Assembly (NCBI RefSeq): GCF_003334315.1 | Contig: NZ_QOWR01000041.1 | DNA: 43,657 nucleotides | Direction: 5' to 3' (one strand) | Origin: Escherichia coli | GTDB lineage: Bacteria; Pseudomonadota; Gammaproteobacteria; Enterobacterales; Enterobacteriaceae | In this document: positions 43,454-43,657 of the stretch, in pieces | How positions within the stretch are numbered: position 1 is the stretch's first letter | Layout of the letters: every line of letters begins with the position of its first letter | Translations under genes and position numbers: made by a program | Notes under the pieces: model-generated | Told to the model about the DNA's origin: nothing | The model's database searches: none | Seen by the model: the letters and a program-made list of their open reading frames with translations, nothing else

Positions 43454-43657
43454 GGTGATGATGCCAACTTACTGATTTAGTGTATGATGGTGTTTTTGAG
43501 GTGCTCCAGTGGCTTCTGTTTCTATCAGCTGTCCCTCCTGTTCAGCTACTGACGGGGTGGTGCGTAACGGCAAAAGCACCGCCGGACATCAGCGCTATCT
43601 CTGCTCTCACTGCCGTAAAACATGGCAACTGCAGTTCACTTACACCGCTTCTCAACC
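43454..43657 (+). mobile_element. IS1 insertion sequence, 5' portion (continues beyond the window)
   Basis: Terminal inverted repeat GGTGATGaTGCCAACTTACTGAT followed by the IS1 left-end sequence and the insA start; same orientation as the IS1 fragment at 1-390. Confidence 0.9.
43509..43657 (+). CDS. insA: IS1 InsA, N-terminal fragment (window-truncated)
   Basis: GTG start followed by [48 protein letters not shown], recognised as the InsA zinc-finger N-terminus. Confidence 0.85.

Follow-up and report, generated by a model that had tools for sequence, protein, structure and literature searches.

A natural C-to-A polymorphism in the left terminal repeat of an IS1 copy interrupting ydjH of Escherichia coli

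The IS1 copy that interrupts the sugar kinase gene ydjH in a 43,657-nucleotide stretch of E. coli DNA (contig NZ_QOWR01000041.1, called here the window) has an A at position 8 of its left terminal inverted repeat (IRL). This base, at 43461 on the + strand, is C in all six IS1 copies of K-12 MG1655 (IS1A-F). There is little doubt, at a probability of about 0.9, that the A is a genuine natural C8-to-A polymorphism, and that the repeat carrying it (A8) is an established minority allele proficient in transposition rather than a defect, an error in the boundary of the element or a new element. A one-base variant of the left repeat had been suspected in a first-pass annotation, in which the canonical repeat was given as GGTGATGcTGCC. 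That form is correct and the variant is real. The one observation named beforehand as contrary to a variant was the presence of the same base in reference repeats, and none of the K-12 reference repeats has the base of the window.

IS1 is 768 bp long. A -1 frameshift at A6C fuses its genes insA and insB', so that the DDE transposase InsAB' is made, and its insertion is accompanied by a target duplication of 8-9 bp. The window contains the first 204 bp (IS1 positions 1-204) of the copy in ydjH, situated on the + strand at 43454-43657 and ending at the window edge. The reference set consisted of the IS1 copies annotated in NC_000913.3 (IS1A, B, C, D, E and F), with which the window was compared base by base. 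Upon ungapped alignment to IS1A and IS1E, 203 of the 204 bases were found to be the same, with position 8 being the sole difference. Judged from the alignment, such agreement cannot be a matter of chance. The 23-bp IRL, at 43454-43476 on the + strand, reads GGTGATGATGCCAACTTACTGAT and is identical to the IRL of IS1A-E at 22 of its 23 positions. It displays the terminal-repeat pattern of IS1, GGT(G/A)ATG...CCAACTTA(C/T)TGAT, which occupies about 23 bp at the end of the element. The insA frame that begins about 55 bp from the left end is also present: the start of insA4 lies 55 bases into IS1D in NC_000913.3, and the window has a gtg at 43509, which is IS1 position 56. The 5' part of insA, comprising the first 49 codons (43509-43657, + strand), runs past the end of the window and has the nucleotides of IS1A, as do positions 9-204 as a whole. 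According to the ISfinder convention, an iso-form has more than 95% nucleotide identity to a named IS1 across the element; the identity to IS1A is 99.5% over the 204 visible bases, the other 564 bases lying beyond the window.

The window copy thus resembles IS1A and IS1E, the "consensus" IS1 of K-12, also in the insA start and the first 49 codons, and differs from them at position 8 of the left repeat, where it has A instead of C. The left repeat of IS1F, a K-12 iso-form of about 90% identity, is likewise one base off the consensus, with A at position 4, and likewise makes the two ends more alike. However, IS1F keeps C8, and 22 of the 204 bases are unlike those of the window. The A8 copies of IS1 in ATCC 8739, ETEC H10407, 2017.01.04CC, JX21CE33 and the Salmonella IncI plasmid pSa64-96 have the same left repeat as the window, but the public A8 copies occupy insertion sites other than the ydjH site of the window.

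The A8 end is a minority form among E. coli. An exact A8 60-mer occurs in 363 of 9,312 E. coli records having an IS1 left end, the great majority of which show one mismatch and correspond to the C form. Individual copies were counted using a query of 35 nt covering IS1 positions 1-35. Position 8 falls within every 28-nt seed word of this query, and hits can therefore be seeded by A8 copies alone. This procedure found 2,076 A8 copies in 367 records, representing 339 of 5,426 complete E. coli genomes (about 6%), ATCC 8739 and ETEC H10407 among them. A carrier genome has between 1 and 37 such copies, with a median of 2. The E. coli records contain at least 72,578 IS1 left ends in total, and A8 therefore accounts for at most about 3% of the copies. 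Among the best 5,000 plasmid records, 97 carry A8, including plasmids of E. coli, Salmonella and E. fergusonii. Seven metagenome contigs also carry it. There was no exact A8 match in 100,044 species-representative genomes (one per species), where the C form was found in 108 stretches, nor in viral contigs, where the C form was found in at least 120 stretches. The distribution of A8 is therefore narrow, which could reflect descent within few lineages rather than broad fitness.

One proposal of the first-pass annotation, that the variant marks an IS1 iso-form, is supported by these 2,076 copies in 339 complete genomes and by the occurrence of A8 on at least 97 plasmids, in 768-bp elements with target duplications. 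This ordinary iso-IS1 allele is present in hundreds of public annotated genomes. Full-text searches of the literature with the canonical and A8 repeat sequences found no paper discussing the A8 form, and in the literature on the named iso-forms IS1X2, IS1N and IS1SD the names are used without end sequences.

Ten full-length A8 copies were read, each being 768 bp long. Target duplications were found for four of these, at four unrelated sites, and measure 9 bp at loci L130 and L131 and 8 bp at L132 and L262. The two 9-bp duplications are situated on the Salmonella plasmid pSa64-96 and beside a tRNA-Gly gene, and the two 8-bp duplications in a type VI secretion gene and a sugar symporter gene. 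The presence of full-length copies with 8-9 bp target duplications at differing sites shows that A8 copies transpose. Nine different upstream flanks are found among the window, the A8 locus of strain 2017.01.04CC and the seven metagenome contigs, four of which come from one sample series.

The internal sequence of the A8 copies is not uniform. Over positions 1-204, eight of the ten copies are identical to the window, the other two (L129 and L132) differing at position 127. An IS1A-like backbone with A8 is found at L260, which has 2 differences from IS1A and encodes the transposase WP_094096600.1. IS1B-like backbones with A8, with the transposase WP_095033700.1, are found at L261, L262 and L130-L132. 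The A8 copies in public genomes are annotated as IS1A-family or IS1B-family transposases. The programmed frameshift of the transposase is annotated in six chromosomal A8 records, and the gene tables of the plasmids do not mark it. One plasmid has a C8 copy encoding the same IS1B-like transposase (WP_095033700.1) beside an A8 copy, with A8 constituting 1 of its 12 left ends. The occurrence of A8 at many sites and on two backbones shows that the allele has spread by transposition, and that it has either been transferred between backbones through recombination or arisen more than once. Gene conversion from the right end was considered as a simple origin of A8 and was rejected, the bases at positions 4, 9 and 10 being those of the left end.

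IS1 terminates in two imperfect repeats, which serve as binding sites for the transposase InsAB' and the repressor InsA, and the weak promoter PIS1 partly overlaps IRL (PMC12428005, PMC12903888). The canonical IRL and the right repeat (IRR) share 18 of their 23 bases and differ at positions 4, 8, 9, 10 and 19. The agreement rises to 19 of 23 in the A8 repeat, because the right repeat carries A at position 8. At positions 8-10 the two repeats differ in every K-12 iso-form, including IS1F. A survey of 136 right ends from 256 loci showed natural variants at positions 5, 8-12 and 19, with positions 1-4, 6-7 and 13-18 being invariant. This survey was unselected, whereas the survey of left ends is biased, since most loci were fetched by an exact C8 or A8 pattern. 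The variable positions of the right end, together with the divergence between the repeats at positions 8-10, place position 8 in a tolerant spacer between two conserved blocks. The conserved blocks, positions 1-7 and 11/13-23, would be those used by InsAB' and InsA, while the block between them differs from left to right. Position 8 would then belong to the end-divergent block, where A is already the base of the right end, and the change would be near-neutral. Comparison of the repeats thus suggests that the functional effect of A8 is most likely close to neutral.

The position of the variant relative to PIS1 is consistent with a small effect. A consensus scan of the + strand found a sole promoter-like site, at 43461-43488, which overlaps IRL and consists of ATGCCA, a spacer of 16 nt and TATGAT. 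This site is a candidate for PIS1, and in this putative assignment the -35-like hexamer begins with the variant base. The hexamer is weak and changes from CTGCCA to ATGCCA. The first base of the consensus is T, which is matched by neither allele, and no marked change in the transcription of insA and insAB' would therefore be expected. On the minus strand, the left repeat contains an outward-facing -35-like hexamer, TTGGCA, at 43462-43467, with A8 being the first spacer base after it. A hybrid outward promoter formed from this hexamer was rejected, as the ydjH flank has no -10 hexamer at a distance of 16-18 nt.

The boundary between the host gene and the element is sharply defined. The 3' remnant of ydjH, cut by IS1, occupies 43000-43453 on the minus strand, as given by the list of open reading frames, the RefSeq annotation of matching DNA and the break point. 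Upon comparison with the intact ydjH of strain 2017.01.04CC, the window was found to be the same through 43453 and unrelated from 43454 onward. IS1 consequently begins at 43454, the boundary falling exactly at the first G of the left repeat, and the variant is situated 8 bp inside the element. This excludes the suggestion of the first-pass annotation that the A might be the true junction base. It is hardly conceivable that the A lies outside IS1, marking another true boundary or a base derived from the target: IS1 sequence in register fills both 43454-43460 and 43462-43657, and the identity to ydjH extending through 43453 has already refuted this explanation. An error of sequencing or assembly, in a region rich in repeats, deserves somewhat more attention, since both ends of the window lie inside IS1 copies, as in contigs broken at repeats, and since neither junction of the window is present in any complete RefSeq E. 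coli genome, leaving this locus with no second record. Nevertheless, an error is very unlikely. The identical allele is present in 2,076 copies of independently finished genomes, and position 8 is only 8 bp from unique flanking sequence, so that the base is determined by reads spanning the junction. In addition, strain 2017.01.04CC, which matches the window at 43254-43453 with 100% identity, has an A8 IS1 copy of like orientation at a distance of 549 bp.

A different explanation accepts the polymorphism as genuine and regards it as a functional gain, in which the greater likeness of the left end to the right end, or an alteration of the -35 region or InsA operator, leads to more transposition or to relaxed autorepression. 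The rise in agreement between the repeats from 18 to 19 of 23 positions is in line with such a gain, and there is a precedent in IS1F. With transposase supplied in trans, IS1F, whose ends are more alike, moved most readily among the four K-12 copies that depart from the consensus (IS1B, IS1C, IS1D and IS1F), and the similarity of its ends was proposed as the cause (PMC12903888). Moreover, some genomes have 18-37 A8 copies: the chromosomes of JX21CE33, ET245 and ST12468 have 32, 25 and 18, respectively, and the maximum in one chromosome is 37. The A8-bearing chromosomes listed mostly have at least 40 IS1 matches, compared with a median of 10 per genome. However, IS1-rich genomes are likelier to hold any given allele, so that copy number confounds this comparison, and the carriers are probably related to one another, given that many of them have A8 copies at similar coordinates. 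A8 makes up only a small part of the IS1 copies in most carriers, with 1 of 12 left ends on plasmid pDETEC37, and in other genomes 10 among at least 40, 2 among at least 40 and 1 of 13. Its overall share of at most about 3% of copies is unlike that expected for a strong up-mutation. A gain of function thus appears improbable. Equally improbable is the broader proposal that A8 is a symmetrising mutation of the left end which raises activity, through better use by the transposase or weaker repression of PIS1 by InsA, and which would have driven the expansions of IS1 in some E. coli lineages. The evidence is better described by a natural and probably near-neutral minority allele.

If A8 did raise activity, it would put the 2025 proposal that the similarity of the ends sets the mobility of IS1 to a natural test. 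Any alteration of activity by A8 would provide a one-base handle on the control of IS1 transposition by the ends, a point left open in PMC12903888. A8 can also be used as a lineage marker, showing which IS1 copy seeded new insertions or adjacent deletions. For annotation, an exact search with the canonical left repeat misses about 3% of the IS1 copies of E. coli. The weight of the variant for biology at large is small, IS1 being among the best-known insertion sequences and A8 one natural allele of it.

The window contains a second IS1 copy at its other end. The last 390 bp of this element (IS1 positions 379-768) occupy 1-390 on the + strand, adjoining cedA, with the right repeat at 368-390. 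The two partial copies are in direct orientation and bracket about 43 kb, from cedA to the truncated ydjH. The order of genes between them is that of the K-12 chromosome (cedA, katE ... ydjF, ydjG, truncated ydjH), and 13.4 kb of flanking DNA has essentially 100% identity to many ordinary E. coli. With IS1 at both ends, the window looks like a contig broken at a repeat. The left copy is a mosaic, having 10-11 substitutions relative to IS1A, IS1B and IS1D that are grouped in positions 393-471, and the clustered substitutions over 393-452 agree with IS1F. Its exact sequence was found in 289 E. coli records. In full-length copies of its type, the left end is the canonical C8 form and position 127 is T, which shows that the two IS1 copies of the window are different iso-forms.

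The ydjH junction of the window is absent from the 5,426 complete RefSeq E. coli genomes, as is the junction of the left copy on the cedA side. Nevertheless, ydjH and ydjI are recurrent targets of IS1, with insertions in the window and at loci L002, L011-L013, L263 and L264. In assembly GCA_903980645.1 (L013) an IS1 right end is situated at the exact base of the left-end junction of the window (43453/43454). Relative to this junction, a C8 left end lies 4 bp deeper in ydjH at L011 and L012, and an IS1 left end lies 24 bp deeper in isolate AB66 and 82 bp farther out in strain F467. A single gapped alignment consistent with the AB66 junction is seen in 23 records, AB66 being the only one that was read. 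Strains EC09 and 2017.01.04CC share an IS1 junction 549 bp farther out, but the iso-forms inserted there are different. The repeated junctions in ydjH and ydjI could represent a local hot spot or serial adjacent deletions.

The A8 copy of strain 2017.01.04CC (L001, NZ_AP021891.1 2002937-2006889) has the orientation of the window copy and is situated 549 bp from the window junction. It has no target duplication, and the region from ydjI to ydjK is partly deleted. This strain lacks the left IS1 beside cedA. It is plausible that the window junction was derived from an A8 copy of this type by an IS1-mediated adjacent deletion, although it could have arisen otherwise. The far flank of the right IS1 of the window would distinguish between such events: ydjK sequence (TGCACAACG..., as in 2017.01.04CC) would mean an adjacent deletion, whereas a simple insertion in ydjH would be marked by a 9-bp repeat of CAGATAATC.

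The insertion also creates a predicted hybrid open reading frame of 155 amino acids on the minus strand (43000-43467), which starts from a TTG within the left repeat of IS1 and continues into what remains of ydjH. This frame is not on record in the public collection. Its shorter version of 145 amino acids, a truncated YdjH with a predicted ATG start (MIKPRL...), has been annotated as a gene in 51 blocks of that collection. The contigs shown with this 145-residue protein have other junctions, formed either by a C8 left end 4 bp deeper in ydjH or by an IS1 right end at the same base.
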